A DNA stretch of 64,000 bases from a virus (lineage: Duplodnaviria; Heunggongvirae; Uroviricota; Caudoviricetes), in IMG/VR virus record IMGVR_UViG_3300028048_000103, positions 1 to 64,000 of that record. One strand, written 5' to 3'. This document shows positions 4,349-42,294 of the stretch, piece by piece. The notes under the pieces were generated by a model that saw only the letters and a program-made list of their open reading frames with translations, had not been told where the DNA came from and did no database searches. The position numbers and the translations under genes are program-made. Within the stretch, counting starts at the first letter, position 1. Each line of letters begins with the position of its first letter.

Positions 4349-4372
4349 ATTAAATTAATTTTTATTAATATA

Positions 4373-10370: not shown

Positions 10371-10371
10371 A

Positions 10372-18000: not shown

Positions 18001-18732
18001 TTATATTTCTATTTGAAGAATTTCATAAGATGGTTTATATTTTTCATTTATATATGAAACGTTTGCCATTTTAGTTCCTTCAATGTTTTCTAAATTATGG
18101 TTTCCACTATGAATGTGTCCACTAAAAAAATATTTAGGTTTCTTTTTCTTAATTTCTTCGGCTAATGGTAAATTACCAGCATCATAACCACTATTCCAAC
18201 CTTCTGTAATTGTTCCTATGTTGTTCAATGATGGCGAATCATGAGATATAACAATATCACAATTTTCAGGCATAAATGAATAATATCTTTTTAGTGTTTC
18301 ATCATTAACCATAAAAGCCCAATCACCAAAAATATGACAATATGGAGTACCAAATATTTTTAATGTTTTTATACCATTATCAGTAAAATATTCAAAATTA
18401 TAATCTTCATTATTAAGAATTTTTACTCTGTTTTTTGTTGTAATATTAAAACAATTAACATGTTCTTTTGATATTTGCAGACCGACAAAATCATGATTGC
18501 CCCAAACCATTACAACCTTACTCCATTCATTTTTAAATGGTAATGTGTTTATCCAATTAGCAAAATCGTGTTGAAACCAATTAATTTGATATGAAAAATA
18601 ATGACTATGTGCAGGGCAAATGTCACCGCAGATTAACAATAAATCAAACGGTGTTGTTATCTCAGGCAAATGGCCGTGCAAATCACTTGTTGCTAATATC
18701 TTTAAATTTTCCATCATTAAATCACTTTGCAA
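18001..18732 (-). CDS. calcineurin-like metallophosphoesterase
   Basis: 243 aa. Motifs DLHGH, GDICP, GNHDF and GHIHSGNH occur in the canonical order. Confidence 0.65.
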   Translation of the reverse strand: MQSDLMMENLKILATSDLHGHLPEITTPFDLLLICGDICPAHSHYFSYQINWFQHDFANWINTLPFKNEWSKVVMVWGNHDFVGLQISKEHVNCFNITTKNRVKILNNEDYNFEYFTDNGIKTLKIFGTPYCHIFGDWAFMVNDETLKRYYSFMPENCDIVISHDSPSLNNIGTITEGWNSGYDAGNLPLAEEIKKKKPKYFFSGHIHSGNHNLENIEGTKMANVSYINEKYKPSYEILQIEI

Positions 18733-21307: not shown

Positions 21308-22456
21308 TTAATATGATGCATAGTTATTAAAATAGTTTTTAATTAAAATAATTGGTGTTCCTTTCTGCCCTGAACCACTAACCAAATCACAAAGTGATGC
21401 AATTAAGTCCCTATACTGTCTTGGTGTTGTACCTTGTGCTATCATGTTTCCAACCAAATTGTGTGCATTGTATTCCTTAATTTCATTTTTAATTGCATTG
21501 TCAAGTTCAGTACCATGCAAGTCCTTATATTTATCATCAGCAAACGCCTTAATTTTAATCTCATTAGGTGTTGATTCAAATATTTCAGGGTCAGTATAAC
21601 CAGGCATTGTAACAGGGTCAGCAAATTCATTAATAGAAGTACCTAAAATACCATTAATCATTGGACTATGGAAACAACCATCACCATATACACAAACAAG
21701 TACATCTTTTCCTGTAACAATTTTAATCTTGTCCTTTATGTCTTCACAAACTCTAACACAGTCCTTAATGTTGGGAAATAGTTTAATTTTGTCCTCAGTT
21801 GCTTTATTAGAACCTAAAACACCCCAATCACATCTGTCAGAAAGTATATCAGCCAAAGTATACCAATATCTAAAACCACTGTATCTTTCTTTAAACTGAT
21901 TGTAATCATGAAGACCACAATAAAGAACATTTGTCGGATGTTCATCTGATGGATTGAAATTACTTTCAACAATAACACATTCAACACCTTCGGATTCAAT
22001 AATTTCTCTATAATATTCTGTATAATCCATACCTGTAAACGGATGATTTCTGCTTATATTTCCAACCTCATCAATCAAAGGCATGTATAGATATATTTTT
22101 CCGTCAAAAAAACCCAATTCAGCGCCTTTCTTATATATACCCCTTGCAATTCCTCTAAGTATCATGGCAAACCTGTTTCTTGAATAAATCATGTTCACCA
22201 AAGTAAGGACATTACCGAAAAACTTTTTCTTAACATCTTCAGCAATGTCATCAATAGTAGCATAATTACCAAAACTCCTTGCTACAACAGATTCCGTTAT
22301 GCCAATAATATCTTTGTCTTCGATATCATAAATGTCATTATGTATTCTTGTAGCATTAAACACACTGTCAATAACAGCATCTACAATATTATCACCTTCT
22401 TTAATAATTGGTGCTTTAATACCAAAAGCACTTGTACAAATTCCACTTCTAACCAT
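21308..22456 (-). CDS. hypothetical protein
   Basis: 382-aa ORF. A class II motif lies upstream at 22476-22505. Confidence 0.5.
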   Translation of the reverse strand: MVRSGICTSAFGIKAPIIKEGDNIVDAVIDSVFNATRIHNDIYDIEDKDIIGITESVVARSFGNYATIDDIAEDVKKKFFGNVLTLVNMIYSRNRFAMILRGIARGIYKKGAELGFFDGKIYLYMPLIDEVGNISRNHPFTGMDYTEYYREIIESEGVECVIVESNFNPSDEHPTNVLYCGLHDYNQFKERYSGFRYWYTLADILSDRCDWGVLGSNKATEDKIKLFPNIKDCVRVCEDIKDKIKIVTGKDVLVCVYGDGCFHSPMINGILGTSINEFADPVTMPGYTDPEIFESTPNEIKIKAFADDKYKDLHGTELDNAIKNEIKEYNAHNLVGNMIAQGTTPRQYRDLIASLCDLVSGSGQKGTPIILIKNYFNNYASY

Positions 22457-25676: not shown

Positions 25677-25701
25677 TTTATTTTAGTTTTTTTTTTATTT
25701 G

Positions 25702-25776
25702 GGAGTTATAAGAGATTCGAACTCTTTCCTTCAGAACCACAATCTGACATGCTTCGACCATTAACACCAATAACTC
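25702..25776 (-). tRNA. tRNA-His (anticodon GUG)
   Basis: Reverse complement: acceptor GAGTTAT/ATAACTC, anticodon stem TCAGA/TCTGA with loop TTGTGGT, T-arm AAGAGTTCGAATCTCTT. Confidence 0.55.
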
Positions 25777-25804
25777 CATGTTAAAAACTTTCAGAAAACT
25801 TTTT

Positions 25805-25874
25805 ACCGGTTTTAGGAATCGAACCTTTATCACCTGAACAAATCAGTTGTTCTACCATTGAACTATAACGTCCG
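25805..25874 (-). tRNA. tRNA-like gene, possible anticodon UUG (Gln); acceptor and anticodon stems imperfect
   Basis: Reverse complement has a canonical D-arm AGTTCAATGGTAGAAC and the T-loop GGTTCGATTCC. The acceptor pairs only 4 bp (CCGG/CCGG) and the anticodon stem has a mismatch. Confidence 0.35.
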
Positions 25875-25933
25875 GATTTTTGCCACGTTAAATAAAATTA
25901 AAACATTGCTGTTAGTTTTCTTAATTTTATTTG

Positions 25934-26006
25934 TAGGGCCAACGGTATTCGAAACCGTGTGATAGGAATGAAAATCCTATATCCTTGACCACTAGATGAT
26001 AGCCCC
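25934..26006 (-). tRNA. tRNA-Glu (anticodon UUC)
   Basis: Reverse complement: acceptor GGGGCTA/TGGCCCT (two G-U pairs), anticodon stem TAGGA/TCCTA with loop TTTTCAT, T-arm ACGGTTTCGAATACCGT. Confidence 0.55.
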
Positions 26007-26419
26007 ATAAAATACCTGTTTTGTTAATTTTCTTTGTTTTTGTTCTAAGAAGTGTACCAAAAAAACTCGCCACATGCCTGTGTTTATCCCTGTACAGGTG
26101 AACATACTCTAAAACCTCACTCCTTCATGGGTCGAACAATTTTCTATAAACAACTAATTGTAATTATCCTTTATCTTAACATCATGCCTTCAATTAAGAG
26201 AATAATCCTCGATTAATAGTTCAGAAGGTTAAGTTTCCCTCTATACCTATGTTGGCTCTTTTAACTGTTCTGCAACACCACAACAATCAGTATTGGTCAA
26301 GTATTAGGATTTGCACCAACTTTTTACAACCTTATTATAACACAAAAAAATTAACTAGTACTTTTAAAATATTATAATTAGTTCTCCACTTGACTTCGAA
26401 GCCTCACAAGTGGTATACT

Positions 26420-26496
26420 TGGTGGAATAGACAGGATTCGAACCTGCAAAATGACACCGTGCAAGGGTGTTGCTGTACCATTGAAGCCACTACCCC
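26420..26496 (-). tRNA. tRNA-Ala (anticodon UGC) with encoded CCA
   Basis: Reverse complement: acceptor GGGGTAG/CTATTCC, anticodon stem ACACC/GGTGT with loop CTTGCAC, T-arm GCAGGTTCGAATCCTGT, then ACCA. Confidence 0.65.
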
Positions 26497-26636
26497 AAAA
26501 ATACCGCATTTACGGCAGTGCGGTCAGCCAAAACATACGCTCTTCGAGTGATGTTAATTTTACAGGAAACATTTTTTTCAGAATGTTAGATTAAAAGTCT
26601 AGTCCTTAAAAAACTTGCTGTGTGTTTCCTTATTGT

Positions 26637-26714
26637 TGCGGAGGGTAGGATTCGAACCGTTTGATACGTCCTCCTGCTTATGAGACAGGCGAGCTGACCA
26701 CTGCTCCACCCCGC
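26637..26714 (-). tRNA. tRNA-Met/fMet-like (anticodon CAU) with atypical T-arm
   Basis: The 5' half GCGGGGTGGAGCAGTGGTCAGCTCG closely resembles bacterial initiator tRNA. The anticodon arm is CCTGT-CTCATAA-GCAGG. The T-arm region is about 6 nt too long and pairs poorly. Confidence 0.45.
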
Positions 26715-26908
26715 AATATTTAAAAATAAACGATTTTAGACTAGATTCGTGAACCGTTTTTATGCTTAGAGCCATAGAAAATTTGCAACTTCTCTATGTT
26801 GTTACTTGAACGTGCGAATCCACAAACACACCGCTACCCCTTGAAACCACCTAAAAAGTGTGTACATCACTTTCATTATCAATGATTACCTTTCAAGTAT
26901 CTCTATTG

Positions 26909-26983
26909 TGGGAATGAAGGAATTCGAATCCCTGACCCTTTGAATGTAAGTCAAATGCTCTAACCCAACTGAGCTACACTCCC
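26909..26983 (-). tRNA. tRNA-Val (anticodon UAC)
   Basis: Reverse complement: acceptor GGGAGTG/CATTCCC, D-arm TAGCTCAGTTGGGTTAGAGC, anticodon stem TTTGA/TCAAA with loop CTTACAT, T-arm AGGGATTCGAATTCCTT. Confidence 0.65.
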
Positions 26984-27814
26984 AAAAATACGCCCATTTG
27001 TTCCTCCATGTTGCCACAGTATGTTGTGAAGGACTTCTCACGATATTAGCCCAATGCAACCTCTTTACGCTACTTCTGCACCTATATTTGGAATTAATGT
27101 TGCTTACCTACGTATACCCATCGCAAATTTTAACCTTGAACCTCTGTACATTGCTCCAATCTGTAGCAGGACTCTCCCAAGGTTGGCAGGAACAACCCAA
27201 CAAGACTATTTTCTATTGAGGATTTGAACCTCTGCACATCTTAATCATAGAAAAAAAACAGGAAACATTATAAAAACCCAATTTATTATGCTTAATAATA
27301 AGTTAATTTGCTGTATGTTTCCTTATAAAAATAAATACAAAAAATATCTAAAAAAAACTACTTGATAGTACAAAAAGATATTATTGGTTTAGCCAAAACC
27401 ATTTTGTTTCGATTAGTCCTCTACCTAACCGTGTAGGATTTCCTTTCCACATTTAGAATGGCTTATTCTATTTAGTATGTTGGCTAAGGAAATATTCTAA
27501 TCCCCAACAACTTTATTTTTCAAAAAAAAACGGATGCATGTCAATCGTATTCCGTTATTCTGCGTTAACCTCACATGCCAAGGTCATATAGTCCACAACA
27601 CACCCATATGACTAACTAGTATTTTCATTCTAAAAATTACTTAATAGAATATGAGCAGCCACTATTATAATGGAACCAATAAAACCACTATTGAATTTCT
27701 GCTATTGTTTAGTTTCTAATTTTTCAACATTGTCAAATAACTTACATTGCAAATATATAAACATTAATTGACAAAAACAAATTTATTTTTACTCAAACAT
27801 CAAAAAACTTTTTG

Positions 27815-27853
27815 TACTTCGGCTGCGACTCGAACGCAGGACCAACTGCTTAG
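27815..27853 (-). tRNA. 3' exon (positions 35-73) of intron-split tRNA-Arg (anticodon UCU)
   Basis: Reverse complement: CTAA-GCAGT-TGGTC-CTGCGTTCGAGTCGCAG-CCGAAGT-A. It pairs perfectly with the 5' exon at 28408..28441 (acceptor 7/7 including one G-U, anticodon stem ACTGC/GCAGT 5/5). Confidence 0.7.
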
Positions 27854-28407
27854 CTTACCACTATAACTTTCGTTACCAATATAAGACTAAAAATGACCTA
27901 CAGCACAAGAGGATTGCAGTCATTCCGTAACATCCCTTTTATGTTCCTCTTATTTCGGGTCTTTATATTGTTTGTGGTCTGGACTATCCCTTAACCATAT
28001 TGAAATCTTGCAAGATTGGATTAGGGTTCGTTCTTACCCCGAATAGCAGGTCGCTTTCCTGCACAGTTTGTTTTAATTTTAGAATCCAAATTTCAACTTA
28101 GGTTTCTTCCGTCTAGTCTCTACACACTGTCTATTACAAATACTGAAATGTAGCTTAATTGCATATATTTGCCTTCTATGCAATAACGCCTTTTCATTAC
28201 ATTCCCAATTAACACCTTTTGCAAACGAGGTGAGTATTTGTTTTTAACATTGGTTCGGTATTAGCATATATTAACAGGACTCTTCACCTGTCCGACTCAT
28301 ATAGAGTGTCTGATTTGATTTTATACTTAGCTTTCACCGAATTTGGAAGTTTCTACATCTAAAATTTCTTTTAGTGCACTCCTAATTAATTGATTATCAA
28401 TTACTTA
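27854..28407 (-). mobile_element. group I intron (about 554 nt) in the anticodon loop of tRNA-Arg(UCU), inserted after position 34
   Basis: Both flanking tRNA halves match exactly. The minus-strand reading has an R-like element GTAGAGACTA (28108-28117), an S-like GATAGTCCAGACC (about 27975-27990) and a P-like AATTCGGTGAAA (about 28335-28346) in the canonical order. It ends in G before the 3' exon, and the 5' exon ends in U. Confidence 0.6.
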
Positions 28408-28441
28408 AAGGCAGTTGCTCTATCCACTGAGCTACCGAAGC
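28408..28441 (-). tRNA. 5' exon (positions 1-34) of intron-split tRNA-Arg (UCU)
   Basis: Reverse complement: GCTTCGG-TA-GCTC-AGTGGATA-GAGC-A-ACTGC-CTT. Confidence 0.7.
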
Positions 28442-28465
28442 ATAAATAATATTTTTAAAAATTAG

Positions 28466-28504
28466 TGACCCCTGTGGGATTCGAACCCACGACCCCAACA
28501 TTAA
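28466..28504 (-). tRNA. 39-nt tRNA 3' half (anticodon N-U-U; acceptor AGGGGTC), 3' exon of the second intron copy
   Basis: Reverse complement: TTAA-TGTTG-GGGTC-GTGGGTTCGAATCCCAC-AGGGGTC-A. Same length and junction context (gtaccactataactttcgttacca) as the Arg 3' exon. Confidence 0.5.
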
Positions 28505-28932
28505 CGTACCACTATAACTTTCGTTACCAGTTGCAAACAAGGAGTTTAGCCCTATATTTACATACCTGTTTGTGGTCTGGACTGTATCTTAACCATATTG
28601 AAATCTTGCAAGATACTGTATGAAGAGATTTGCTGAGTTGCACAGCCTGTATCTAACTCCGGTTTCACTGGGAACATTCATACAATAATTTCAACTTAGG
28701 TTCCTCCTGTATAGTCTCTACACACTGTCTAAAGGTATTGCATTCTTGCAACTAAACTATCTCACTCCTTTTAACATTGGCTCGGTATTACCATCAGCAA
28801 CATACTTTCAAATCATTAATCCTCAGTATTCCCAAAGCATTCATTTACTTGTACGTTCTGTTAAGGTTTCACCGAATTAGGGAGGTTCTACATCCGAAGT
28901 TTCCTTCGGTGCACTCAAATTACACATTGTTC
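28505..28932 (-). mobile_element. second group I intron copy (about 430 nt), homologous to 27854..28407
   Basis: Shares four conserved blocks with intron 1: 3'-terminal accactataactttcgttacca, the S-like block at 28567-28612, the R-like block at 28688-28730, and the P-like block plus gtgcactc at 28870-28908. The central regions are divergent. Confidence 0.5.
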
Positions 28933-28967
28933 AAGACCGCTGCATTAGACCACTCTGCCACCTCACC
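28933..28967 (-). tRNA. tRNA 5' half resembling tRNA-Ser(UGA) (class II D-arm), 5' exon of the second intron copy
   Basis: Reverse complement: GGTGAGG-TG-GCA-GAGTGGTCTAA-TGC-A-GCGGT-CTT. This follows the architecture of a bacterial tRNA-Ser(UGA) 5' half. The acceptor GGTGAGG does NOT pair with the 3' half at 28466..28504. Confidence 0.45.
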
Positions 28968-29109
28968 GTAAAATAAAGATTATTCTGAACTCTGTCACCA
29001 TTAACAAATATTAGATAAAAATCTAATATTTAACAAATATTAGGTAAAAGTCTAATAATATTGTTAAACATTTATTCAATGTTACTGTCAGTTTTTTCTT
29101 TATTAAGAA

Positions 29110-29160
29110 AGTCACCATAGTATGCTGCAAGTTGGAATTGAACCAACAACTATATTCAGT
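29110..29160 (-). tRNA. orphan tRNA 3'-half-like element (T-arm GTTGGTTCAATTCCAAC, acceptor TTGCAGC)
   Basis: Good T-arm and 3' acceptor, but no canonical D or anticodon arm upstream. Possibly another split or degenerate tRNA. Confidence 0.25.
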
Positions 29161-29307
29161 TTTTTCATAATCACAGCCTTCGTGACCATATTTTATTTTC
29201 AATTTCACATATTCAATAAAATAATTTGTATTTATCAGTATTGTCAAAGAGCAATTAATTTCATTGCAAATATATAAATCTTTTTTTTAACAACAAAATT
29301 AATTTTA

Positions 29308-29378
29308 GTTGAAGGCAGAGGAATCGAACCTCTATTCTGGGAACCAAAATCCCATGTCTTGCCTTTAGACGAGCCTTC
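29308..29378 (-). tRNA. tRNA-Pro (anticodon UGG)
   Basis: Reverse complement: acceptor TGAAGGC/GCCTTCA, D-stem GTCT/AGAC, anticodon stem TGGGA/TCCCA with loop TTTTGGT, T-arm AGAGGTTCGATTCCTCT. Confidence 0.65.
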
Positions 29379-29405
29379 AATTTATTTCAAAGAACAATTG
29401 TTTAT

Positions 29406-29428
29406 CTTACAAATATCGTGCCAAAATA
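29406..29428 (-). promoter_or_regulatory. class I promoter-like motif upstream of tRNA-Pro
   Basis: cttacaaatatcgtgccaaaata. Confidence 0.4.
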
Positions 29429-29451
29429 TAAATTTTAACATTTTTTTTTTG

Positions 29452-29488
29452 CGGGAATGATAGGATTCGAACCTATAACCTACGGATT
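29452..29488 (-). tRNA. 3' exon of split tRNA-Asn (anticodon GUU)
   Basis: Reverse complement: AA-TCCGT-AGGTT-ATAGGTTCGAATCCTAT-CATTCCC-G. It pairs 7/7 (acceptor) and 5/5 (anticodon stem) with the 5' exon at 29591..29626. Confidence 0.6.
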
Positions 29489-29490
29489 AG

Positions 29491-29562
29491 ACTCAGCAAA
29501 AGGAATCGAACCTTTTTTTGGACTTGCAATGCCACCCGTCCTAACCATTAGACGATACTGAG
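29491..29562 (-). tRNA. tRNA-like element embedded inside the tRNA-Asn intervening sequence
   Basis: Reverse complement: acceptor CTCAGTA/TGCTGAG, D-arm GTCT-AATGGTTA-GGAC, T-arm AAAGGTTCGATTCCTTT. The anticodon-arm region GGTGGCATTGCAAGTCC does not form a canonical stem. Confidence 0.4.
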
Positions 29563-29590
29563 TTGGTTCGTTTCGGTGAACCATTCCGTT

Positions 29591-29626
29591 AACAGTCCGT
29601 TGCACTAACCGTTGTGCTACATTCCC
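29591..29626 (-). tRNA. 5' exon of split tRNA-Asn (GUU)
   Basis: Reverse complement: GGGAATG-TA-GCAC-AACGGTTA-GTGC-A-ACGGA-CTGTT(AA). Confidence 0.6.
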
Positions 29627-29638
29627 AATTATAAACTA

Positions 29639-29872
29639 CTATTCAGTAGTTTCAGTTTCTTCAGTCTTTACTGTATCTTCATTTTTAGGCATTGTTGCTG
29701 CTGTAACAGGTGCAACTGAATTCATCTTTTCATATTCCTCCTTCAACTTTTCAAGCCTCTTTTGTCTTGCCAACATAAGTCTCTTCTTTTCAGTAAGACT
29801 ATTTCTAACGTTTTCATTTGCATCCCTTCTTGGTGCATCAACATGTTTCTTAATGTGCTTTCTCTTTGTCAT
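29639..29872 (-). CDS. hypothetical basic K/E-rich protein
   Basis: 77-aa ORF embedded in the tRNA region. Confidence 0.4.
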   Translation of the reverse strand: MTKRKHIKKHVDAPRRDANENVRNSLTEKKRLMLARQKRLEKLKEEYEKMNSVAPVTAATMPKNEDTVKTEETETTE

Positions 29873-29901
29873 AATATATAAAGTTTAAAATTAAAAATTT
29901 G

Positions 29902-29975
29902 TACCCTCTCTCAGATTCGAACTGAGACTTTATAGGTTTTGAATCTATTCACTCTTCCAATTGGTGTAAGAGGGT
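29902..29975 (-). tRNA. type I tRNA with anticodon CAA (Leu codon UUG), atypical
   Basis: Reverse complement: acceptor ACCCTCT/AGAGGGT, T-arm CTCAGTTCGAATCTGAG, anticodon stem ATAGA/CCTAT (one mismatch) with loop TTCAAAA. The variable arm is short, unlike canonical tRNA-Leu. Confidence 0.45.
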
Positions 29976-30185
29976 AAAAAATATTGAGTTACTTGTCCTT
30001 ATCACCTTACAGTTGGTTCGTACTTCCTTCGCCTTGGATAATATATTGTTCATGCATGTCAACTATATTACCTGTACACCTTTACAACCCGCTATTGTTT
30101 TCACTGTAACACATACTTGCAAAAGCTGAAAGTTGTTTTCCTAATCCCTCACTCAATATTAAAATTTCAAAGAACATTTATTTAT

Positions 30186-30208
30186 CTTACAAAAATCATG
30201 CCAAAGGC
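30186..30208 (-). promoter_or_regulatory. class I promoter-like motif
   Basis: cttacaaaaatcatgccaaaggc, pointing leftward into the non-coding region 29981-30180 and the tRNA at 29902. Confidence 0.4.
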
Positions 30209-30234
30209 AATAAAAGCAAACATTTTTTTTTAAA

Positions 30235-30915
30235 TTACTTATTTAATATTTTGCCGTACAATTGGCCTCTTTTAAAATATTTTGATTTACCTGTGCGAGT
30301 TGGTTCAAGACTTTCTGTTATAATTTTGTCTATATCAATAGTATTTTCTCTCAAAGCCAAATCATCATATATTTTTTTTACTTGTTCAAAAAAAGGTATT
30401 CTAAATTTAAAATGCTTGGATATTTGTGTATAATAGTTATCATCATCTGTTGCATCTACAATTTCATGTTCTTCATGTTGAAGTTTTAATTGTGAGTGCT
30501 TGTCATCACCTTCCCAATATTGATACGAAACCTCTCCATCGTTTTGCATATCAACAAATATCACACTTTCTTGGTTATATTTGTAGCATAGATAAAGTGT
30601 ATCTTCAATAGTGATATTATATACCATTATAGAATTCTCAATACCATCATAGTTACCTTTTACTTTAAAATATTTATAATGTCCAATACTAAGTTGTCTT
30701 TCTAATTCATTACTTGCTTGCTGATTATATTCTTTTTCAGCCTTATTACCCATAGGATTTTCTGCTGAAATAATAGCCATTGTTCTAACCCTACGATTAG
30801 TTCCTCGTATTGCTTGTTGTGCTTTTTGTCTGCGTGATGTTTCCATCATGGCATTTTTAACACTTTTCTCTATTATATTTCTTAAATCAGTTTCAGTAAG
30901 AACTATTTTTTTCAT
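30235..30915 (-). CDS. hypothetical protein
   Basis: 226-aa ORF between tRNA blocks. Confidence 0.5.
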   Translation of the reverse strand: MKKIVLTETDLRNIIEKSVKNAMMETSRRQKAQQAIRGTNRRVRTMAIISAENPMGNKAEKEYNQQASNELERQLSIGHYKYFKVKGNYDGIENSIMVYNITIEDTLYLCYKYNQESVIFVDMQNDGEVSYQYWEGDDKHSQLKLQHEEHEIVDATDDDNYYTQISKHFKFRIPFFEQVKKIYDDLALRENTIDIDKIITESLEPTRTGKSKYFKRGQLYGKILNK

Positions 30916-30929
30916 ATTTTCTTTTTTTG

Positions 30930-31014
30930 TGGGAGTGGTTAGATTCGAACTAACTGTGTGTCATTGTAATGGATTTACAGTCCATCGCCCATCCACCATC
31001 TGAGCAGCACTCCC
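30930..31014 (-). tRNA. tRNA-Tyr (anticodon GUA), long variable arm
   Basis: Reverse complement: acceptor GGGAGTG/CACTCCC, anticodon stem ATGGA/TCCAT with loop CTGTAAA, a 16-nt variable arm, T-arm GTTAGTTCGAATCTAAC. Confidence 0.65.
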
Positions 31015-31095
31015 GTAATTAAATTCTTATTGAATTTAGAAGTCAATGTATCTCATCTTCCTACGGCTTAAAAATCCGAAAAACATACATAGTTG

Positions 31096-31178
31096 TGGGC
31101 ATTGAGAGACTTGAACTCTCACGTCATTCTGACACATGCTCCTTAGGCATGCCTGTCTACCAATTCCAGCAAACGCCC
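31096..31178 (-). tRNA. tRNA-Leu (anticodon AAG), class II
   Basis: Reverse complement: acceptor GGGCGTT/AATGCCC, D-loop AATTGGTAGA, anticodon stem CATGC/GCATG with loop CTAAGGA, long variable arm, T-arm GAGAGTTCAAGTCTCTC. Confidence 0.55.
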
Positions 31179-31250
31179 ATCATTTCATCGTATCACTTTT
31201 ATAAAAACCTCATATGTTTAAAACAACAATGCAAATATATAAATCTTTTT

Positions 31251-31406
31251 TTAAAAACCCAAATTTTTATGTACAAAAATAATGTTTTCTACATCAAAAT
31301 CATCTGTGTAATTCAACACTTCATTCAAAAATGTTTCCATTGTATAACCACTATGGTTTTTAAATTCCTCTTCCAATTGTTTGTGATTTTCCAAAATATT
31401 ATCCAT
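31251..31406 (-). CDS. possible small ORF (about 52 aa; MDNILENHKQLEEEFKNHSGYTMETFLNEVLNYTDDFDVENIIFVHKNLGF)
   Basis: Hand-translated; under 60 aa so absent from the track. It lies between two tRNAs. Confidence 0.25.
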   Translation of the reverse strand: MDNILENHKQLEEEFKNHSGYTMETFLNEVLNYTDDFDVENIIFVHKNLGF

Positions 31407-31429
31407 AATCATTAAATTTTATATTTTTG

Positions 31430-31503
31430 TGGGCAAGGTAGAACTCGAATCTACGGTCTCTTGAATATCAGTCAAGTGCTTTAACCAACTAAGCTACTTG
31501 CCC
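31430..31503 (-). tRNA. tRNA-Ile (anticodon GAU)
   Basis: Reverse complement: acceptor GGGCAAG/CTTGCCC, D-arm TAGCTTAGTTGGTTAAAGC, anticodon stem CTTGA/TCAAG with loop CTGATAT, T-arm GTAGATTCGAGTTCTAC. Confidence 0.65.
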
Positions 31504-31520
31504 TTATTTTTAAAATTTTG

Positions 31521-31602
31521 TGGGCACTGAGAGACTTGAACTCTCACATCCAAAGGATACATGCTTCTAAGGCATGTGTGTCTACCGTTCCACCAAGCAC
31601 CC
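31521..31602 (-). tRNA. tRNA-Leu (anticodon UAG), class II
   Basis: Reverse complement: acceptor GGGTGCT/AGTGCCC (two G-U pairs), anticodon stem CATGC/GCATG with loop CTTAGAA, long variable arm, T-arm GAGAGTTCAAGTCTCTC. Confidence 0.55.
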
Positions 31603-31607
31603 ATTTG

Positions 31608-31681
31608 AGTTTCAGGTGAGATTCGAACTCACGGATGTCAGTTTTGCAGACTGATGTGTTAAACCACTTCACCACTGAAAC
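31608..31681 (-). tRNA. tRNA-Cys (anticodon GCA)
   Basis: Reverse complement: acceptor GTTTCAG/CTGAAAC, anticodon stem TCAGT/ACTGA with loop CTGCAAA, T-arm GTGAGTTCGAATCTCAC. Confidence 0.6.
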
Positions 31682-31689
31682 ATATTTTG

Positions 31690-31764
31690 CAGAAGCGGAA
31701 AGATTCGAACTCTCATCAGGCAACTTTGGAGGATGCTATGCTTAACCATTTACACCACGCTTCC
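31690..31764 (-). tRNA. tRNA-Trp (anticodon CCA)
   Basis: Reverse complement: acceptor GGAAGCG/CGCTTCT, anticodon loop CTCCAAA (identical to E. coli tRNA-Trp), T-arm GAGAGTTCGAATCTTTC. Confidence 0.6.
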
Positions 31765-31775
31765 GTATTAACTAT

Positions 31776-31798
31776 CTTACAAAAATCATGCCAAAATA
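31776..31798 (-). promoter_or_regulatory. class I promoter-like motif upstream of the Trp-Cys-Leu-Ile-Leu-Tyr tRNA block
   Basis: tatcttacaaaaatcatgccaaaataaa, about 12 nt upstream (minus sense) of tRNA-Trp. Confidence 0.45.
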
Positions 31799-32109
31799 AA
31801 AAACCTCTTGGTTTTAATTCTTATTTTGTTGAAGGAATTTTAACTAAGAGGTTGGGAAAAATATGTTGTGGTTAGAAACCTATGTGATTTACTTTATACT
31901 TTCTTATCCTCTTTACAGTTTGTTCTTTCATGTGATGGTTCTTCACATGGGAGTACAAAACTATCATAACCATTAATTTGATTAACGGTTTGCCAGGATT
32001 TATATGTATAATTTTTTTGTAACATAAACAGTTATTTTCGCTTATAAATATTATTGTTTTTTAAAAAAATAAAAAAATATTAAAAAAAATCAACATTTTT
32101 TTTAAAAAG

Positions 32110-33161: not shown

Positions 33162-33944
33162 TTATTTTTTGTTATATTGTTCAATTATTCCATTTTTTGT
33201 ATTTAAAACAAAAGCCTGTCTTACGTCAAGGTCAGCCACCCAATTTTCTACAATTGGTGTATCTTGTAATTGTGTATGGCCACAAATAAAATGTACATTT
33301 GGATATTCAATGTTGTTTTCGTCAGAATATTCATTGATATCAGCCCAAACAATTGACCCATTGTCCCAACCATCCCAACCTCTATATCTTGAATATATAC
33401 CCATTGCTATTTCAAAATCATGTGTAGATTTTGTTTCATAATTTCGTCCGTTATCATATGCAGCATGAAACAGATTGTTAAAATATTCAGCATCAGGAAG
33501 ACCTTCATTGTTCCATTCAAAAAGTTTATTTTTTACCCAAGTATCAAACCAATCTTTTCTTACACCTGCATGTGAAAAAAAATAACGTTTATTATTGATA
33601 GTTGTCTCCCAAGCAAGGTCAAATAATTTTATATTAGAAAAATATAATTTATTAAGTTTATTATAGTTTGTATAGTCAGTTCGACATTCACATATATTAC
33701 TATTAATGTATGAAAAATCATGATTTCCCATTAATAATACTACTTTATCATTATTTTCTTTTTTAAACTTAATAATTTCTTTGAAAATTTTCATTGCATG
33801 TGCATTGGTTATCTCTTCATATGGATATGGTGATACATAATCCCCTAAAAAAATAACCTTATCATAGTCATCAATATGTGCACATGGTTCAATCCAAAAT
33901 TCTCTTCCGTGTACATCAGGAATTATTAGTATTTTGTTCATCAT
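33162..33944 (-). CDS. calcineurin-like Ser/Thr phosphatase / metallophosphoesterase
   Basis: 260 aa. Motifs DVHG, GDYV, GNHD and a later GH... histidine motif in order. The stretch IIPDVHGREFW...VIFLGDYVSPYP...LLMGNHDFSY is PPP-family-like. Confidence 0.6.
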   Translation of the reverse strand: MMNKILIIPDVHGREFWIEPCAHIDDYDKVIFLGDYVSPYPYEEITNAHAMKIFKEIIKFKKENNDKVVLLMGNHDFSYINSNICECRTDYTNYNKLNKLYFSNIKLFDLAWETTINNKRYFFSHAGVRKDWFDTWVKNKLFEWNNEGLPDAEYFNNLFHAAYDNGRNYETKSTHDFEIAMGIYSRYRGWDGWDNGSIVWADINEYSDENNIEYPNVHFICGHTQLQDTPIVENWVADLDVRQAFVLNTKNGIIEQYNKK

Positions 33945-34988: not shown

Positions 34989-36563
34989 TTATAATCCGAC
35001 AGATAATGGATATTTAATTGAGGGATATGACTGATATTCTTTAATCTTAATATCACCATATGTAAACTCTTCTATATTTTTCCTCTCAGGATTAAGCCAT
35101 AACTTAGGAAGTCCATACATGTGTGGATTTCTATTTTTTTGCTCTTTTTCGTAAATTTCAATTTGGTTTTCATACATATGTACATCACCACCGCTAAATA
35201 TAAGTTCATCTACACCCATATTACAACATTGCGCAATCATATAAGTCATTATAGAATAGGAAGTTATATTGTACGGTAAACCTAAACCACAATCCACGCT
35301 GCGCTGATTCCACATACAACTTAGTTTTCTTGTTGGAACACCTGCATTGTCAAATATTCTATTACTTCTTTCCTCATCATCAGGATACCATATAACAGAC
35401 CCATCAGCATAATTATCAACTACGTATTGTTCTCTTTCTTTGAAAGTCATTTTCTTCGTATAGAACTGACAGCAATAGTGACAAGGAGGCAATGCCATTG
35501 TTTTTAATTCACCAACGTTCCAAGCGGAAACAATAAGCCTTCTGTCATCAGGGTTAGTTTTAAGTTTATTAATAAGTTCATTAATTTGGTCAACACCGTT
35601 CCAATTTCTCCATTGTTTACCATAAACAGGGCCTAAATCACCAAACACATACTGTTTATAAGTAGATAAATTATCTTCGATACTTTTAGGGTATATTTTA
35701 GTTTGTTTTAAAACCTCAGATAAAAAATCATTTTTTGAAAGTTGTGGTGTTGTATTATTTTTGGTAAGTTCCAAATAATACCTATATGCATCATCATCCC
35801 AAATATGAACACCATTTTCTACTAAATATTTAATATTGGTTTCACCTTTTAAAAACCAAAGAAGTTCATGAATAATTCCTTTTGTAAATACTTTTTTTGT
35901 CGTGAGTATTGGTAAACCCTCTTTTAAATTAAATCTAAGTTGTTTACCAAATAATGACCTTGTTTTACCTGCTCTTGTATCTTTGATTTCACCATGTTCA
36001 ATAATATCATTAACTAAATTAAGATATTGTTCATCAACATGATTGTTCATACCATTACATTTAATATATGTCATTGCATAAGCCTTTCTATGTTCTATCT
36101 CAATAGGTTGACCAATTTCCTCCCAATTTGGATTCGTTACAATATCTGGAAAAAAAGTATCAGCATCAGGTACATCAACCGCAAGCATATCAATCATCAC
36201 CTTGTCTACTAAATTATGTGATAAAGCATAATCATATATACTTGCACCACCAATAATGAAAATTTCATCATCTATTGTTTTAGCATAACTTATTGCTTCT
36301 TCGACATCACTGACAACTTTTACATCTTTATATCTTGCTTCATATTCTTTTCTTGAAGTAACAACAATATTGGTTCTGTTTGGAAGTGGATGACCAATTG
36401 CTTCAAATGTTTTTCTACCCATAATAACAGGATGTCCTGTTGTTGTGTCTTTAAACCATTTTAAATCCGCCTTATTATTCCAAGGCATATTTCCTTTTAT
36501 ACCAATAGGGAAACCATGATTTGGTACATAGTTTCCCACGGCAACAATAATATTAACACTCAT
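34989..36563 (-). CDS. bifunctional dihydrofolate reductase-thymidylate synthase (DHFR N-terminal, TS C-terminal)
   Basis: 524 aa. The N-terminus IVAVGNYVPNHGFPIGIKGNMPWN...DLKWFKDTTTGHPVIMGRKTFEAIG...RTNIVVTS matches DHFR. The C-terminus PVYGKQWRNW...DDRRLIVSAWNVGEL...MALPPCHYCCQFY matches ThyA including the catalytic Cys. Confidence 0.8.
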   Translation of the reverse strand: MSVNIIVAVGNYVPNHGFPIGIKGNMPWNNKADLKWFKDTTTGHPVIMGRKTFEAIGHPLPNRTNIVVTSRKEYEARYKDVKVVSDVEEAISYAKTIDDEIFIIGGASIYDYALSHNLVDKVMIDMLAVDVPDADTFFPDIVTNPNWEEIGQPIEIEHRKAYAMTYIKCNGMNNHVDEQYLNLVNDIIEHGEIKDTRAGKTRSLFGKQLRFNLKEGLPILTTKKVFTKGIIHELLWFLKGETNIKYLVENGVHIWDDDAYRYYLELTKNNTTPQLSKNDFLSEVLKQTKIYPKSIEDNLSTYKQYVFGDLGPVYGKQWRNWNGVDQINELINKLKTNPDDRRLIVSAWNVGELKTMALPPCHYCCQFYTKKMTFKEREQYVVDNYADGSVIWYPDDEERSNRIFDNAGVPTRKLSCMWNQRSVDCGLGLPYNITSYSIMTYMIAQCCNMGVDELIFSGGDVHMYENQIEIYEKEQKNRNPHMYGLPKLWLNPERKNIEEFTYGDIKIKEYQSYPSIKYPLSVGL

Positions 36564-39140: not shown

Positions 39141-39980
39141 TTATAAATTAATTAACTCTTCATTATCATTTTCAATATCATCAATATTATTTATTACAAA
39201 TTTGTAATAACCACCATCAGGATTAGGGACATCAATATATTCATAAATAACATCATCCTTGTCTGATATGTCCCATAACACAAAACCATGTTCGGATATA
39301 CTTTCACCAAAATTTTTTTGATTAATTGATGAACAGTACACGATTTTAACACCGTTCTTTTTAATTTCCTGTTTTTTATGAATATGGCCGGCAATAACAA
39401 AATCACAATTTTCAAAAACATTGGGGTCAACACCATTTTCGGTAACACGATTAGTTGCAGTAATTGCACCATTGACATCACCATGGATTAAACCAATGTA
39501 TATGTTATCATCACCGTATTTTGTTTTTGCTGCTTCTATATCAGGAGGGTTAAAACCTTCAAATGATGAATAAAGACACCAAACAACATTATCATCTTTA
39601 AAACAATCTGATTTATATTTAAGTTGTTTGTCAAGATAAATAACATTTTTCATTTTGTTAATTTCGAATAGAGGTGTTATTGAATCAACCCTTTCTATAT
39701 TATTCATTAACATATCATGGTTTCCTGCAATAACAATTGTTTTAGTTATTTTACCAAGTTCATCTAAAAACCAATAAGCCAATAATTGTGATTCATTCGA
39801 AATATTAATTTTTTGATTAAATAAATCACCTGCAACCACAATTCTTACATTATCTTTTTCCTCCTTTTCAACAATCTCTTTACATTGATTTATAAATGTG
39901 GTTAAAATAGTTTTTAATTCGTCAATCCCCTGATAATTAGGAATATGTATATCACTGCATGCAATTATTTTAGTTATCAT
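39141..39980 (-). CDS. SbcD/Mre11-like metallophosphoesterase (putative nuclease)
   Basis: 279 aa. Motifs ACSDIHI, VVAGDLF, AGNHD and GHIH in the canonical order. Confidence 0.5.
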   Translation of the reverse strand: MITKIIACSDIHIPNYQGIDELKTILTTFINQCKEIVEKEEKDNVRIVVAGDLFNQKINISNESQLLAYWFLDELGKITKTIVIAGNHDMLMNNIERVDSITPLFEINKMKNVIYLDKQLKYKSDCFKDDNVVWCLYSSFEGFNPPDIEAAKTKYGDDNIYIGLIHGDVNGAITATNRVTENGVDPNVFENCDFVIAGHIHKKQEIKKNGVKIVYCSSINQKNFGESISEHGFVLWDISDKDDVIYEYIDVPNPDGGYYKFVINNIDDIENDNEELINL

Positions 39981-41439: not shown

Positions 41440-42294
41440 CTAAGCCTTAATAGTAGATACAACATTCAATAGTCTTTTCTTAGTTTTAGAAATTATTTGT
41501 CTAATACGTTCAGAGGAAAAACCAAGTTGTTCTCCAATTTCATAATTAGTATATTCTTTATCATAATCAATGCCAAAAGCCATTTTCATTATTGTTCTAT
41601 CTCTTTCGTTTAATATTGAAAGAAGTTTCTTTATTACTGCCTTGTTATGTTCCTTATCTATTGTCTCTTCATAATCATTATAACTGGCTGTTCTTTGATT
41701 ATATGCTTTGGTTTTTTCTTTAGTATTTTCTTCATCATCAAGAAAATCATTTATTGATTCCGATGAAATATCAAATACTTCACTTTCATTCTGAATTTCA
41801 ACATTAAAATCATTTTTCATGAAATCAATTATTTCATCATCAGAAGGATATCTACCGTTTTCGCAATAAAATTTGTTTTTAATCTTATTTAGTTTAGTAC
41901 CAATTTTCATATTATTGGTTCTTTTAATAAGAAGATTATCATTTGTCATATAATAATTTATGGCCCTTCTTATATACCAAACAGCATATGACAAAAATCT
42001 TACACCTTTTGTATCATCATATTTTTCAATTGCCGTAATGAGGCCAATGTTACCTTCATTAACTAAGTCCATTATTGAATCATCTGATGCATATCTTTTG
42101 GCAATAGCAAAAACAAACCTCTGATTACAATTAATAAGTTTTTCTCTTGCTTCATTATCACCTTCTTTAATCTTATAAATCAAATCAATTTCCTCATCAG
42201 GAGAAAGCAAAGGATATTTGCGTATTTCGGAAAGATAAGTATTAAGACCATCAGTTTTAGGTGTAAAACCACCATTAATAAGTTTAATATTCAT
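41440..42294 (-). CDS. sigma-70 family RNA polymerase sigma factor
   Basis: 284 aa. Region 2 reads DLVNEGNIGLITAIEKYDDTKGVRFLSYAVWYIRRAI. A region 4-like helix-turn-helix reads YTNYEIGEQLGFSSERIRQIISKTKKRL. Confidence 0.7.
   Translation of the reverse strand: MNIKLINGGFTPKTDGLNTYLSEIRKYPLLSPDEEIDLIYKIKEGDNEAREKLINCNQRFVFAIAKRYASDDSIMDLVNEGNIGLITAIEKYDDTKGVRFLSYAVWYIRRAINYYMTNDNLLIKRTNNMKIGTKLNKIKNKFYCENGRYPSDDEIIDFMKNDFNVEIQNESEVFDISSESINDFLDDEENTKEKTKAYNQRTASYNDYEETIDKEHNKAVIKKLLSILNERDRTIMKMAFGIDYDKEYTNYEIGEQLGFSSERIRQIISKTKKRLLNVVSTIKA

Follow-up and report, generated by a model that had tools for sequence, protein, structure and literature searches.

Mobile introns and candidate structured RNAs in a phage tRNA cluster

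A viral DNA stretch of 64,000 nucleotides (the window; IMG/VR record IMGVR_UViG_3300028048_000103, positions 1 to 64,000) carries a tRNA array on its minus strand at 25700-31800, and automated tools leave about 2 kb without explanation, as a sequence-only reading had claimed. The question raised by this locus is what lies between and within its tRNA genes. We favor, at a probability of roughly 70%, the view that the cluster is mosaic, with mobile introns and with stable RNAs excised by tRNA-processing enzymes among its tRNAs, and that group I introns, a mini-intron, structured RNAs between tRNAs, and debris cover most of the sequence that the tools do not explain. Mobile elements would have colonized the phage tRNA cluster, which may also carry stable noncoding RNAs.

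tRNA genes and coding context

ARAGORN called 16 tRNAs in the whole window, 14 of them on the minus strand at 25700-31800, where Rfam at its gathering score likewise placed 14. This strand of the array holds 13 uninterrupted tRNAs (His, Glu, Ala, Met-like, Val, Gln, a class-I CAA tRNA, Tyr, Leu-AAG, Ile, Leu-TAG, Cys, and Trp) and two interrupted ones, Arg and Asn:

25701-25776, minus strand: tRNA-His(GTG), ARAGORN; Rfam 50.2 bits
25804-25872, minus strand: degenerate tRNA-like sequence, Rfam tRNA 27.1 bits (below the gathering score of 29), acceptor pairing partial by reading
25933-26006, minus strand: tRNA-Glu(TTC), ARAGORN and Rfam
26420-26496, minus strand: tRNA-Ala(TGC), ARAGORN and Rfam
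26635-26715, minus strand: tRNA-Met(CAT)-like, 81 nt, enlarged variable region, ARAGORN; Rfam 34.5 bits
26908-26983, minus strand: tRNA-Val(TAC), ARAGORN and Rfam
27814-28441, minus strand: split tRNA-Arg(TCT), exon 1 28408-28441, group I intron 27854-28407, exon 2 27814-27853
28466-28967, minus strand: chimera of a tRNA-Ser(TGA) 5' exon (28933-28967), a group I intron (28505-28932), and a tRNA-Lys(TTT)-like 3' half (28466-28504)
29308-29379, minus strand: tRNA-Gln(TTG), intron-free in the window, ARAGORN and Rfam
29452-29626, minus strand: split tRNA-Asn(GTT), exons 29592-29626 and 29452-29489, mini-intron 29490-29591
29901-29975, minus strand: class-I tRNA with anticodon CAA and an irregular anticodon arm, ARAGORN; Rfam 46.6 bits
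30929-31764, minus strand: tRNAs Tyr(GTA), Leu(AAG), Ile(GAT), Leu(TAG), Cys(GCA), and Trp(CCA), ARAGORN and Rfam

At least 18 tRNA-like genes, including Pro, had been read from the sequence. The array is real, the window has no tRNA-Pro, and Gln had been overlooked. The sequences flagged as noncanonical, at 25805, 26637, and 29902, do have low Rfam scores, as listed; a homolog of the CAA tRNA in locus L010 has a 5-bp stem and a 9-nt loop. One ARAGORN call, an "Ala" at 29490-29562, was rejected as a tRNA gene and is the tRNA-like core of the insert within tRNA-Asn. Much of what follows draws on relative R, which is 90% identical, measures 108 kb, and differs sharply in content. R has a tRNA-Pro, and its tRNA-Gln(TTG) is interrupted by a 556-nt group I intron that the window copy lacks. 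The window, which encodes a BACON-domain protein, UvrD, DHFR-thymidylate synthase, a sigma factor, and an endolysin, most likely belongs to a phage of Bacteroidota-type hosts of the gut or rumen.

Three blocks of the array had been described as free of ORFs and tRNAs, and so they are: their minus strand contains no ORF of at least 60 aa, ARAGORN and Rfam find no tRNA in them, and no Rfam family matches them even at E<=5. Clean contiguous tRNA calls across the blocks had been named as the outcome that would speak against the reading; ARAGORN and Rfam made no such calls, and the finding thus survives. That the blocks encode small proteins, or proteins under an alternative genetic code, is very improbable. 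Related gut phages do reassign stop codons (PMC7886860), and L010 has a CTA suppressor tRNA, but ARAGORN finds no suppressor tRNA in the window, its ORFs are dense and long under the standard code, and substitutions in the B3 RNA described below track base pairing rather than codon periodicity.

Introns within tRNA genes

The stretches that had been read as plain Arg, "Pro," and Asn tRNAs actually harbor the introns. Two of these introns, in tRNA-Arg and in the chimera, are members of the common bacterial tRNA group I family, inserted after U34 of the anticodon loop. They share with bacterial relatives of the Azoarcus tRNA-Ile and cyanobacterial tRNA-Leu(UAA) type (RF00028) the position in the anticodon loop, a U at -1, a 3' G, and common core sequence elements, those seen here being AATTCGGTGAAACC, GTGTAGAGACTATAC, and AAGATACAGTCC. 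The intron motif lies within an anticodon loop in 24 of the 30 viral loci that bear it. The same 3' motif is found in intron-containing tRNAs across many bacterial phyla; it occurs in 114 bacterial genome loci, and 65 of 81 motif regions checked (from 80 bacterial loci) are enclosed by an intron-containing tRNA call. The range of target tRNAs agrees with a published survey (bioRxiv 10.1101/2020.01.27.920355). Unlike the bacterial introns, the window copies lie in a phage array, measure 428 to 554 nt with large peripheral insertions, and score below the Rfam gathering score of 50 (29.8 bits against Intron_gpI for the chimera intron, E=2e-5 with the full model aligned, and 16.8); one of them bridges unrelated half-genes.

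The intron of tRNA-Arg(TCT), 554 nt by ARAGORN in intron mode, has U at -1 and G at its 3' end and scores 269 bits against the family profile. Spliced in silico, the tRNA is a perfect cloverleaf, and self-splicing to a normal tRNA-Arg(UCU) is predicted. The chimera, by contrast with R, which has complete Ser, Pro, and Asp genes, an HNH ORF, and Lys at this position, is dead: two unrelated half-genes are joined, and in silico splicing of the Ser 5' and Lys 3' parts gives no tRNA. Its Ser exon is identical to the complete Ser gene of R, and its 3' half corresponds to Lys genes in L006 and L014. The chimera probably arose by a deletion between two copies of the intron, but misassembly across two introns of similar sequence could also account for it. 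The family profile finds only these two copies in the whole window (27848-28410 and 28501-28922), both outside the blocks, contrary to the suggestion that the blocks might hold more intron remnants.

The insert in tRNA-Asn is of another kind. It is 102 nt long, with an Rfam tRNA score of 59.4 bits across the 175 nt of the split gene, and its presence or absence differs at the exact anticodon position from R, in which tRNA-Asn is uninterrupted. We assign the insert to the "enigmatic" tRNA introns first described from Lak megaphages (Devoto et al. 2019, PMC6784885). Like these, it is an anticodon-loop insert in the 80- to 115-nt range that starts with WTACAG and a hairpin, has a tRNA-like part with a TTCGAWT loop, lacks an Rfam match, and varies in presence among close relatives. 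The Lak intron listed as Tyr-GTA is better read as Asn-GTT, with the same 35|36 site as in the window. Differences are that the phage carrying it here is another, much smaller one (108 kb in the relative) and that the 5' part of the window insert is a clearer H-type pseudoknot. With the Lak sequences taken from Table S6 of PMC6784885, a common architecture is found in 13 members (the window and 12 other introns) from nine tRNA species: a 5' WTAC(A/G)G hairpin or pseudoknot, a tRNA-like minihelix of 13 stacked bp, and a single C, inserted at anticodon position 35|36 or 36|37. In the three Pro copies, the acceptor sequences differ entirely and yet still pair. PMC6784885 offered neither a mechanism nor a structural definition; the proposed rule of a 13-bp stack plus C and the predicted splice positions are newly worked out here.

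The mini-intron may be excised at the RNA level by proteins that recognize the elbow of the tRNA-like part and gauge distance along the helix, after which an RNA ligase would join the exons; cleavage by RNase P or RNase Z at the minihelix alone would not yield the observed exon ends. The window yielded neither an RNA ligase nor a splicing endonuclease; the only pointers to such enzymes are three metallophosphoesterases, a macro domain, and a HAD domain of the "Swiss Army Knife" RNA-repair type. We consider it unlikely that the insert is never removed, that is, that it is selfish DNA in an inactivated gene, with the tRNA-like core perhaps the sole product. We know of no bacterial pathway that removes inserts of this type, the variable -1 nucleotide excludes a group I identity, reading revealed no bulge-helix-bulge motif, and tRNA-Asn could come from the host. 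Against this, joining the exons in silico at 35|36 restores a perfect tRNA-Asn cloverleaf despite many differences between its exons and those of R, several or many of which appear compensatory (by eye, uncounted). The same type of insert recurs at the same anticodon position across the nine tRNA species with every member's exons intact, and Lak phages retain identical introns across cohorts (PMC6784885).

Structured and candidate structured RNAs between tRNAs

The elements between tRNAs that bear on structure are the following:

26059-26288, minus strand: block A core, candidate stable noncoding RNA, ~230 nt, 3' hairpin and T-run, from conservation and a homolog in L065
26294-26331, minus strand: tRNA-like minihelix, acceptor and T-arm only, CCA end, just upstream of the block A core, by reading
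26386-26413, minus strand: conserved hairpin directly after tRNA-Ala, compensatory changes versus L068
26989-27206, minus strand: B3 RNA, structured noncoding RNA family, ~215 nt, tRNA-to-tRNA spacer, from covariation
27218-27235, minus strand: T-arm remnant of the tRNA preceding B3 in other phages, from alignment with L022, L028, and L004
27345-27521, minus strand: B2, noncoding segment, homolog only in R at ~90% identity
27522-27744, minus strand: B1, candidate noncoding RNA, ~220 nt, ending in a hairpin and T9, from conservation versus R
29983-30157, minus strand: block C, candidate noncoding RNA, ~175 nt, 10-bp closing stem, from comparison with R

On covariation, we are certain that B3 is a structured RNA between tRNAs, and a previously unclassified one. 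Viral and metagenome contigs supplied the 24 distinct sequences of its family; the window has one copy. Compensatory changes occur at 21 of its 25 pairs across the 24 sequences, cells are paired at 96.1% versus 74.1% in shuffles, and the covariation score of 0.709 (0.289 in shuffles) was reached by 0 of 500 shuffles, with slid controls at 0.124 or less. No Rfam family covers B3 in the window or in the other B3-bearing loci searched, and no copy was found in 185,579 bacterial or archaeal genomes. The large ornate RNAs ROOL and GOLLD, which have no known function (PMC12286853), resemble B3 in their elaborate folds and in typically neighboring tRNAs of phage or prophage DNA, with some examples from the rumen, but they measure ~580 to 800 nt, and neither has a match at E<=5 in the window or any match in the other B3-bearing loci (Rfam 15, all families).

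B3 always occupies the gap between two tRNAs, with 0 nt at its upstream junction and the downstream tRNA at a fixed distance; in L022, L028, and L004, a full tRNA ends exactly where B3 starts. RNase P and RNase Z would free B3-type RNAs from the tRNA precursor transcript, by analogy with phage T4, whose tRNA cluster yields species 1 and 2, non-tRNA stable RNAs that tRNA-processing enzymes liberate from the shared precursor. Neither of these two has a known function. The window RNAs would likewise be stable non-tRNA RNAs among phage tRNA genes; B3 is unrelated in sequence to the T4 RNAs and longer, and its comparative support is far stronger. A somewhat unlikely alternative is that B3 and block A are not free-standing RNAs but cis-acting leaders or spacers of the tRNA precursor, which could steer how the tRNA that follows, often tRNA-Val(UAC), is processed, folded, or transcribed. 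The invariable abutment of the upstream tRNA fits this, as does Val-UAC following B3 in 12 of the 22 cases with a downstream tRNA called, most often ~95 to 120 nt past a conserved ...AATATAG motif; other conserved leader modules, such as CCGTAAATGCGGyATTTT, sit directly before tRNAs. The downstream tRNA varies, however (Pro, Ala, Ile, Leu, His, and Ser also occur), and the several invariant loops of B3, including TTGGA and TCCAA with complementarity over 5 nt, are commoner in folded RNAs that act in trans or in ribozymes.

Block A and B1 are probably structured RNAs between tRNAs or minihelices, as suggested by conservation. Block A is 99% identical to R between flanks of 87 to 93% and has no Rfam match; its distant homolog in metagenome locus L065 (E=2.7e-34) begins right after a tRNA and shows eight pairs with compensatory change. 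The minihelix upstream also occurs in L068, where a real tRNA comes next, and the hairpin after tRNA-Ala pairs as CCACTTG/CAAGTGG in the window versus CCTTCTG/CAGAAGG in L068. B1, downstream of a TAnnTTTG-type promoter motif, differs from R by two substitutions and a 3-nt difference in terminal T-run length over ~220 nt (~99%), with neighbors at 87 to 93%. Block C is a possible structured RNA, with conserved islands alternating with fully diverged hairpins and three compensatory pairs from two sequences; it is missing upstream of the same CAA tRNA in L010. B1, B2, and C have no homologs beyond R, and recent transfer, as opposed to selection, could explain their conservation.

The suggestion that the blocks may hold noncoding RNAs was reasonable and is supported for B3 and block A; block C is a weaker candidate. 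The inverted repeats quoted in its favor exist, at 26078 as the 3' hairpin of block A and at 27572 as a hairpin within B1; the latter, taken for S-element-like, belongs to neither intron copy and is not a group I S element. Structure in the blocks is supported by covariation and conservation, not by inverted repeats, and most blocks fold no more stably than shuffles (z -2.1 to +0.6).

Remnants and debris

A rival account is that the noncoding blocks (the tRNAs and two group I introns aside) are functionless, decaying leftovers of introns, homing-endonuclease genes, and tRNAs, left by repeated traffic of mobile elements. The ordinary folding energies, the sharp content difference from R, and clear debris, namely, endonuclease 3' ends, the tRNA-half remnants at 27218-27235 and 26294-26331, and the dead Ser/Lys chimera, agree with this account. 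It is nonetheless improbable given the compensatory changes in B3, the conservation of block A and B1 far above their flanks, the pairing retained in the L065 homolog, and the empty intron-family profile in the blocks. The mosaic reading assigns to debris the remaining stretches, which are homing-endonuclease gene ends, tRNA halves, and promoter and terminator repeats. Two hairpin elements and a further minihelix of the array are the following:

26562-26631, minus strand: long-loop hairpin element AAGGAAACACACAGCAAG...ATGTTTCCT, the same motif forming the last codons of an ORF in R
27251-27324, minus strand: second copy, AAGGAAACATACAGCAA...ATGTTTCCT, then a T-run, from motif recurrence
29123-29177, minus strand: tRNA-like minihelix of the GGCTG...T-arm...CAGCATACTA type, acceptor and T-arm, Rfam tRNA 23 bits

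At the first site, R has an inserted endonuclease-type ORF of ~320 aa whose last codons are the hairpin motif, and the element is probably a remnant of the 3' end of a homing-endonuclease gene. The motif GAAA-N3-ACAGCAA occurs four times, always on the minus strand and in tRNA regions. The minihelix at 29123-29177 has longer homologs in R (L024, 7919-8025) and in L010 (1974-2096).

tRNA content of the array and its phage background

The usual annotation of a phage tRNA array is a simple list of tRNAs. ARAGORN called 16 tRNAs in the window, 14 of them within the array at 25700-31800 (minus strand), and Rfam likewise returned 14 tRNAs in this interval. Allowing for introns added a tRNA-Arg(TCT) at 27814-28441 with a 554-nt intron, while a 175-nt Rfam tRNA match at 29452-29626 is a tRNA-Asn(GTT) with a 102-nt insert, the tRNA-like core of which ARAGORN had labeled "Ala" (29490-29562). 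The two sets of calls, read with introns in mind, therefore give 13 uninterrupted and 2 interrupted tRNAs in the interval. Standard tools miss interrupted tRNAs, here Arg, Asn, and, elsewhere in the window, Lys, and mis-call an intron core as tRNA-Ala; such errors distort inferences about codon usage and code reassignment.

The array described in the sequence-only reading is real, although its list overlooked Gln, and the tRNA-Pro that it claimed is not present in the interval. Three tRNAs that it flagged as odd do score low, at 27.1, 34.5, and 46.6 bits. The blocks that it singled out (26007-26420, 26990-27810, and 29981-30180) are indeed free of minus-strand ORFs of at least 60 aa and of tRNAs, and Rfam searches at the gathering score and at E<=5 returned only tRNAs, with no match to any family in these blocks. 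Its suggestion that they may hold more intron remnants was not supported for group I introns, as the group I family profile finds just two copies. Overall, the finding stands, and there is more in it than was proposed. The sequence left unexplained divides into known mobile introns, an intron class that is poorly understood, a single new structured RNA with strong support, two or three candidates with weaker support, and debris. This is demonstrated at the level of sequence architecture, homology, covariation, and presence or absence between relatives, and any function of the non-tRNA elements is putative.

The window is AT rich (26-35% GC), with nearly every gene on the minus strand, and encodes a BACON-domain protein, a UvrD helicase, a fused DHFR-thymidylate synthase, ClpP, a primase, a sigma-70 factor, and an endolysin. 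This gene content, together with promoter motifs of the TAnnTTTG type, marks it as a phage of a Bacteroidota-type host. Near and distant BLAST searches of 50,697 annotated phage records gave tRNA-sized matches only, with nothing similar to the array beyond single tRNAs. There is one close relative in IMG/VR, IMGVR_UViG_3300032007_000048 (107.9 kb), the sequence of which was found again within a 363-kb contig, and it shares the whole array with the window at 87-96% identity. Two free-standing endonuclease-type ORFs, one with an HNH motif, lie among the tRNAs of the relative (9608-10433 of its piece L024 and 2352-3316 of its piece L029); both are missing from the window, and one takes the place of most of the window's tRNA-Met. 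At 21308-22456 and 34989-36563 (minus strand), the window encodes, respectively, an F420-0:gamma-glutamyl ligase-family protein and the fused DHFR-thymidylate synthase.

The CAA-anticodon tRNA (29901-29975, minus strand; 3712-3786 in the related locus L010) is without the long variable arm of bacterial tRNA-Leu. By reading, its anticodon arm in L010 is a 5-bp stem with a 9-nt loop; in the window, the stem has 4 bp and an A.A mismatch.

Group I introns and the Ser/Lys chimera

Two large introns of one family lie in the array:

27854-28407, minus strand: group I intron in tRNA-Arg(TCT)
28505-28932, minus strand: second group I copy, in the Ser/Lys chimera (28466-28967)

Core segments of the two are ~80-94% identical, and both carry the conserved core strings AATTCGGTGAAACC, GTGTAGAGACTATAC, and AAGATACAGTCC, which resemble an Azoarcus-type core. 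Both 5' exons end in ...CTT (U34), placing U at position -1; T is the final exon nucleotide in every family member, and the final intron nucleotide is G in both copies (...GTGGTAAG and ...GTGGTACG). P1, with a G.U pair at the splice site and an internal guide sequence, can be drawn by reading: CTT/GAA (slash, splice site) pairs with TTTGAG in the Ser copy, and in the Arg copy CTT pairs with GAG, a conserved part of GAGTGCAC. When 1.2 kb was searched, the full Intron_gpI model (RF00028) aligned to 28558-28931 with 29.8 bits (E=2e-5), and the Arg copy gave a partial alignment of 16.8 bits, both lower than the gathering score of 50; neither copy was detected by Rfam in a search of 6.3 kb.

A 24-nt core motif recurs in 30 viral loci, and in 24 of these it lies inside the anticodon loop according to ARAGORN. 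Target tRNAs, by reading, are Arg-UCU, Lys-UUU, Leu-UAA, Ser-UGA, Gln-UUG (in the close relative), CAU, and a UUA suppressor; several raw ARAGORN labels disagree with this reading, since the program misplaces the splice point by a few nucleotides. In bacterial genomes, the 3' motif was located at 114 loci from many phyla, and 65 of the 81 regions checked fall within an intron-containing tRNA call. The large introns of the window are ordinary members of a bacterial tRNA group I family, and their less usual aspect is their location in a phage array. Excision restores tRNA-Arg(UCU) as a perfect cloverleaf, and the Arg intron is probably self-splicing. The Gln gene has an intron in the relative and none in the window, indicating that these introns are gained and lost on short timescales.

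The chimera joins a 5' exon identical to the tRNA-Ser(TGA) exon of the relative to a Lys(UUU)-type 3' half like those of the related loci L006 and L014, and its spliced product is not a tRNA. In the relative, the Ser and Lys genes are complete and are separated by Pro, Asp, and an HNH endonuclease ORF. The simplest account of the chimera is a deletion between two intron copies, with assembly error as the alternative. The spacer upstream of the Ser exon contains a tandem pair of a 29-nt unit, TTAACAAATATTAGRTAAAARTCTAATA (29001-29057).

Small introns in anticodon loops

The insert in tRNA-Asn is of another kind:

29490-29591, minus strand: 102-nt mini-intron in tRNA-Asn(GTT) (29452-29626)

The relative has an uninterrupted tRNA-Asn (...GCGGACTGTTAATCCGT...), and the window has ACGGA CTGT, 102 nt, and TAA TCCGT. 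Splicing between nucleotides 35 and 36 gives a perfect tRNA-Asn, and many of the exon differences between window and relative look compensatory by reading, without a count. Inserts of the same architecture, 80-115 nt in the anticodon loop at 35/36 or 36/37 with exons intact, interrupt Val-UAC and Pro-UGG in L004, Glu-UUC in L022, Arg-UCU and Pro in L049, Pro in L065, Tyr in L061, and Asn in L069, all related viral or metagenome loci. They also include four intron types of the Lak megaphages, which were termed enigmatic, with "no hit in rfam" (Table S6, Devoto et al. 2019, PMC6784885). The class I Lak tRNA given as Tyr-GTA reads better as Asn-GTT split at the same site, between 35 and 36.

A common structural plan was parsed from 9 members and extended to 13, with three mis-sliced Lak entries corrected by hand. 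The introns start with (A/T)TAC(A/G)G, in the window version TAACGG, followed by a short 5' hairpin, which in rumen members is an H-type pseudoknot. The window pseudoknot pairs CGG/CCG (S1) and GGTTC/GAACC (S2), that of L004 pairs ACAG/CTGT and TAATCC/GGATTA, and the geometry of the window recurs with other sequences in L049, L004, and L069. An A/T-rich linker leads to a minihelix with a TTCGAWT loop, the acceptor and T stems of which total 13 bp (8+5, 9+4, or 7+6; 8+5 in the window), and a single C is the last intron nucleotide. This rule of 13 bp plus C fits 8 of the 9 parsed members and 4 further ones; the exception, in L022, has 12 bp and a terminal G.G mismatch. Acceptor sequences of the three Pro introns are unrelated and all paired; selection acts on the helix and not on its sequence. 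A motif scan gave no exact match to the mini-intron hairpin. The enigmatic introns of Lak phages now have a concrete, testable definition, namely splice position, 5' pseudoknot, and 13-bp minihelix plus C, and a wider host range than before, making splicing experiments straightforward to design.

The mini-intron was compared with known elements. It is not a group I intron because the -1 nucleotide varies (T, A, C, or G). For an archaeal or eukaryal bulge-helix-bulge intron, no 3-4-3 motif could be drawn in the window, L004, or Lak members, nor, on reading the same introns, does a complement of the anticodon lie near the 3' end; the window ORFs yielded no splicing endonuclease domain. HDV-like, hammerhead, and pistol ribozymes were ruled out by reading, and an IS200/IS605-type insertion after TTAC was rejected, as the flanking target varies. 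We infer removal at the RNA level, and our best guess is that enzymes would dock on the tRNA-like elbow, measure along the 13-bp stack, and excise the intron, with ligation to follow. The sole support for this guess within the window is circumstantial: an ORF with a HAD domain of the "Swiss Army Knife" RNA-repair type (43928-44470), one with a macro domain (59883-60359), and three calcineurin-like metallophosphoesterase ORFs (18001-18732, 33162-33944, and 39141-39980), all on the minus strand. Jointly, the five could belong to a pathway for healing and sealing RNA. Beside the HAD domain, two ORFs of 337 and 372 aa were considered as RNA ligase candidates; neither matched PDB or Pfam, and PHROG gave nothing informative.

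tRNA-Lys(UUU) (13611-13726, minus strand) is interrupted in yet another, third way: a 43-nt insert lies in the 5' strand of the anticodon stem, between nucleotides 28 and 29 (CG/TAA...GTTTTCC-GGGAAAA-TTAACAGCAAT...TTA/GTA, slashes marking the insert ends). L022 has a homologous 47-nt insert at the same position (4236-4354). No removal route is known for an anticodon-stem insert of this type.

B3 and other noncoding elements between tRNAs

The strongest new structured RNA lies between tRNAs:

26989-27206, minus strand: B3, structured RNA, single copy in the window

Searches with nhmmer linked B3 to four other viral loci, and a metagenome scan extended the family to 24 distinct full-length sequences. 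RNAalifold placed 25 pairs in 5 helices, with compensatory change at 21 of the 25. Pairing holds in 96.1% of cells compared to 74.1% in shuffles of the same alignment, and the covariation score, 0.709 against 0.289 in shuffles, was reached by none of 500 shuffles and fell to 0.124 or less when partners were slid by 1-3 columns. An extra closing helix covaries by eye (e.g., CAACTAAC/GTTAGTT, GTTCCT/AGGAAC, and ACCGTCA/TGACGGT), and two invariant loops, AGATTGGARCAAT and TCCAAATATAG, share 5-nt complementarity. The upstream tRNA (Ala, Val, or Leu) ends 0 nt before B3 in 13 loci, and the next tRNA, Val-UAC in 12 of 22, begins a few nucleotides past its end; in the window, the upstream tRNA is reduced to a T-arm remnant.

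B3 has no Rfam match in the window (E<=5) or in 30 related loci (gathering score), and no copy occurs in 185,579 bacterial and archaeal genomes. RNase P RNA, 6S, SRP, tmRNA, a group I core, and omega RNA were rejected for mismatches of motif or topology by reading and for lack of Rfam matches. B3 is well supported as a structured RNA and was seen only on phage-like contigs; published phage RNA screens, with their thousands of unnamed candidates, may already include it. Its structure and function merit study beside those of ROOL and GOLLD. Neither these nor other Rfam families gave a model match to B3 or blocks A, B1, and C (window, E<=5). Genes for tmRNA (Rfam, 68-70 bits) occur in related large phage contigs with B3 or introns (L022, 6539-6864; L040, 5842-6261).

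Blocks A, B1, and C are weaker candidates, and B2 (27345-27521) and the Val-Met spacer received no assignment. The blocks are not additional copies of B3, and folding-energy z-scores are uninformative, that of B3 itself being +0.6. The core of block A (26059-26288) is 99% identical to the relative and has a homolog in L065 (E=2.7e-34) that starts directly after a tRNA and shows 8 compensatory pairs; a motif scan found block A in the close relative only. In the window, a CCA-ending tRNA-like minihelix (26294-26331) precedes it, and upstream lie a promoter-like stretch and a hairpin covarying with L068. B1 (27522-27744) has a TAnnTTTG promoter motif on one side and, on the other, a hairpin plus T9. 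Compared with the relative, it carries 2 substitutions, and its terminal T-run differs by 3 nt in length; no homolog was found other than the relative. In block C (29983-30157), compared in two sequences, a 10-bp closing stem is conserved, as are islands split by diverged hairpins. It is missing upstream of the same CAA tRNA in L010, and a motif scan of viral contigs gave only chance matches in GC-rich coding DNA.

The placement of B3 between tRNAs, and of block A after a tRNA (L065) or minihelix (window), appears similar to that of T4 species 1/2. Within one transcription unit, RNase P and RNase Z would set the ends of RNAs lying between tRNAs or tRNA-like structures, and B3 and block A may be released by these tRNA-processing enzymes. 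The broadest reading is speculative, and we give it a chance of roughly one in four. It would place the mini-introns in a mechanistic class of their own, the third among tRNA introns beside group I and bulge-helix-bulge; tRNA-processing enzymes would use the minihelix (13 bp plus C) as a ruler, or else the 5' pseudoknot would be a small ribozyme that cleaves itself. In the same reading, B3 would be a new RNA, catalytic or tRNA-binding, that is specific to lytic phages of gut and rumen.

Several smaller repeats accompany these elements. Two hairpin elements (26562-26631 and 27251-27324) each start with AAGGAAACAYACAGCAA, which in the relative encodes the last codons of an inserted endonuclease-like ORF, and both probably represent terminators or what is left of endonuclease genes. 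Past tRNA 3' ends, at a distance of 5-15 nt, the motif GAAA-N3-ACAGCAA is found repeatedly (25906-25925, 26614-26631, 27307-27324, and 13664-13684, minus strand), as it does in L069 and L010. Often it supplies the 5' arm of a hairpin that has a long loop and is closed by ATGTTTCC. In the relative, it overlaps an endonuclease-like ORF at its stop region, and its role may be in termination, processing, or homing. Two promoter-like repeat families precede tRNA or noncoding RNA units, TTGGCATGATTTTTGTAAGATA and GATTTATATATTTGCAATG (Bacteroidota TAnnTTTG type), at 29403-29432, 30183-30212, and 31773-31802 and at 27736-27789, 29253-29306, and 31218-31271; the phage's own sigma-70 factor is encoded at 41440-42294. 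A conserved leader module, ...CTCGAAGAGCG...CCGTAAATGCGGYATTTT, lies directly 5' of tRNA-Ala in the window (26497-26560, minus strand) and directly 5' of tRNA-Val in L004 (~9940-9984).
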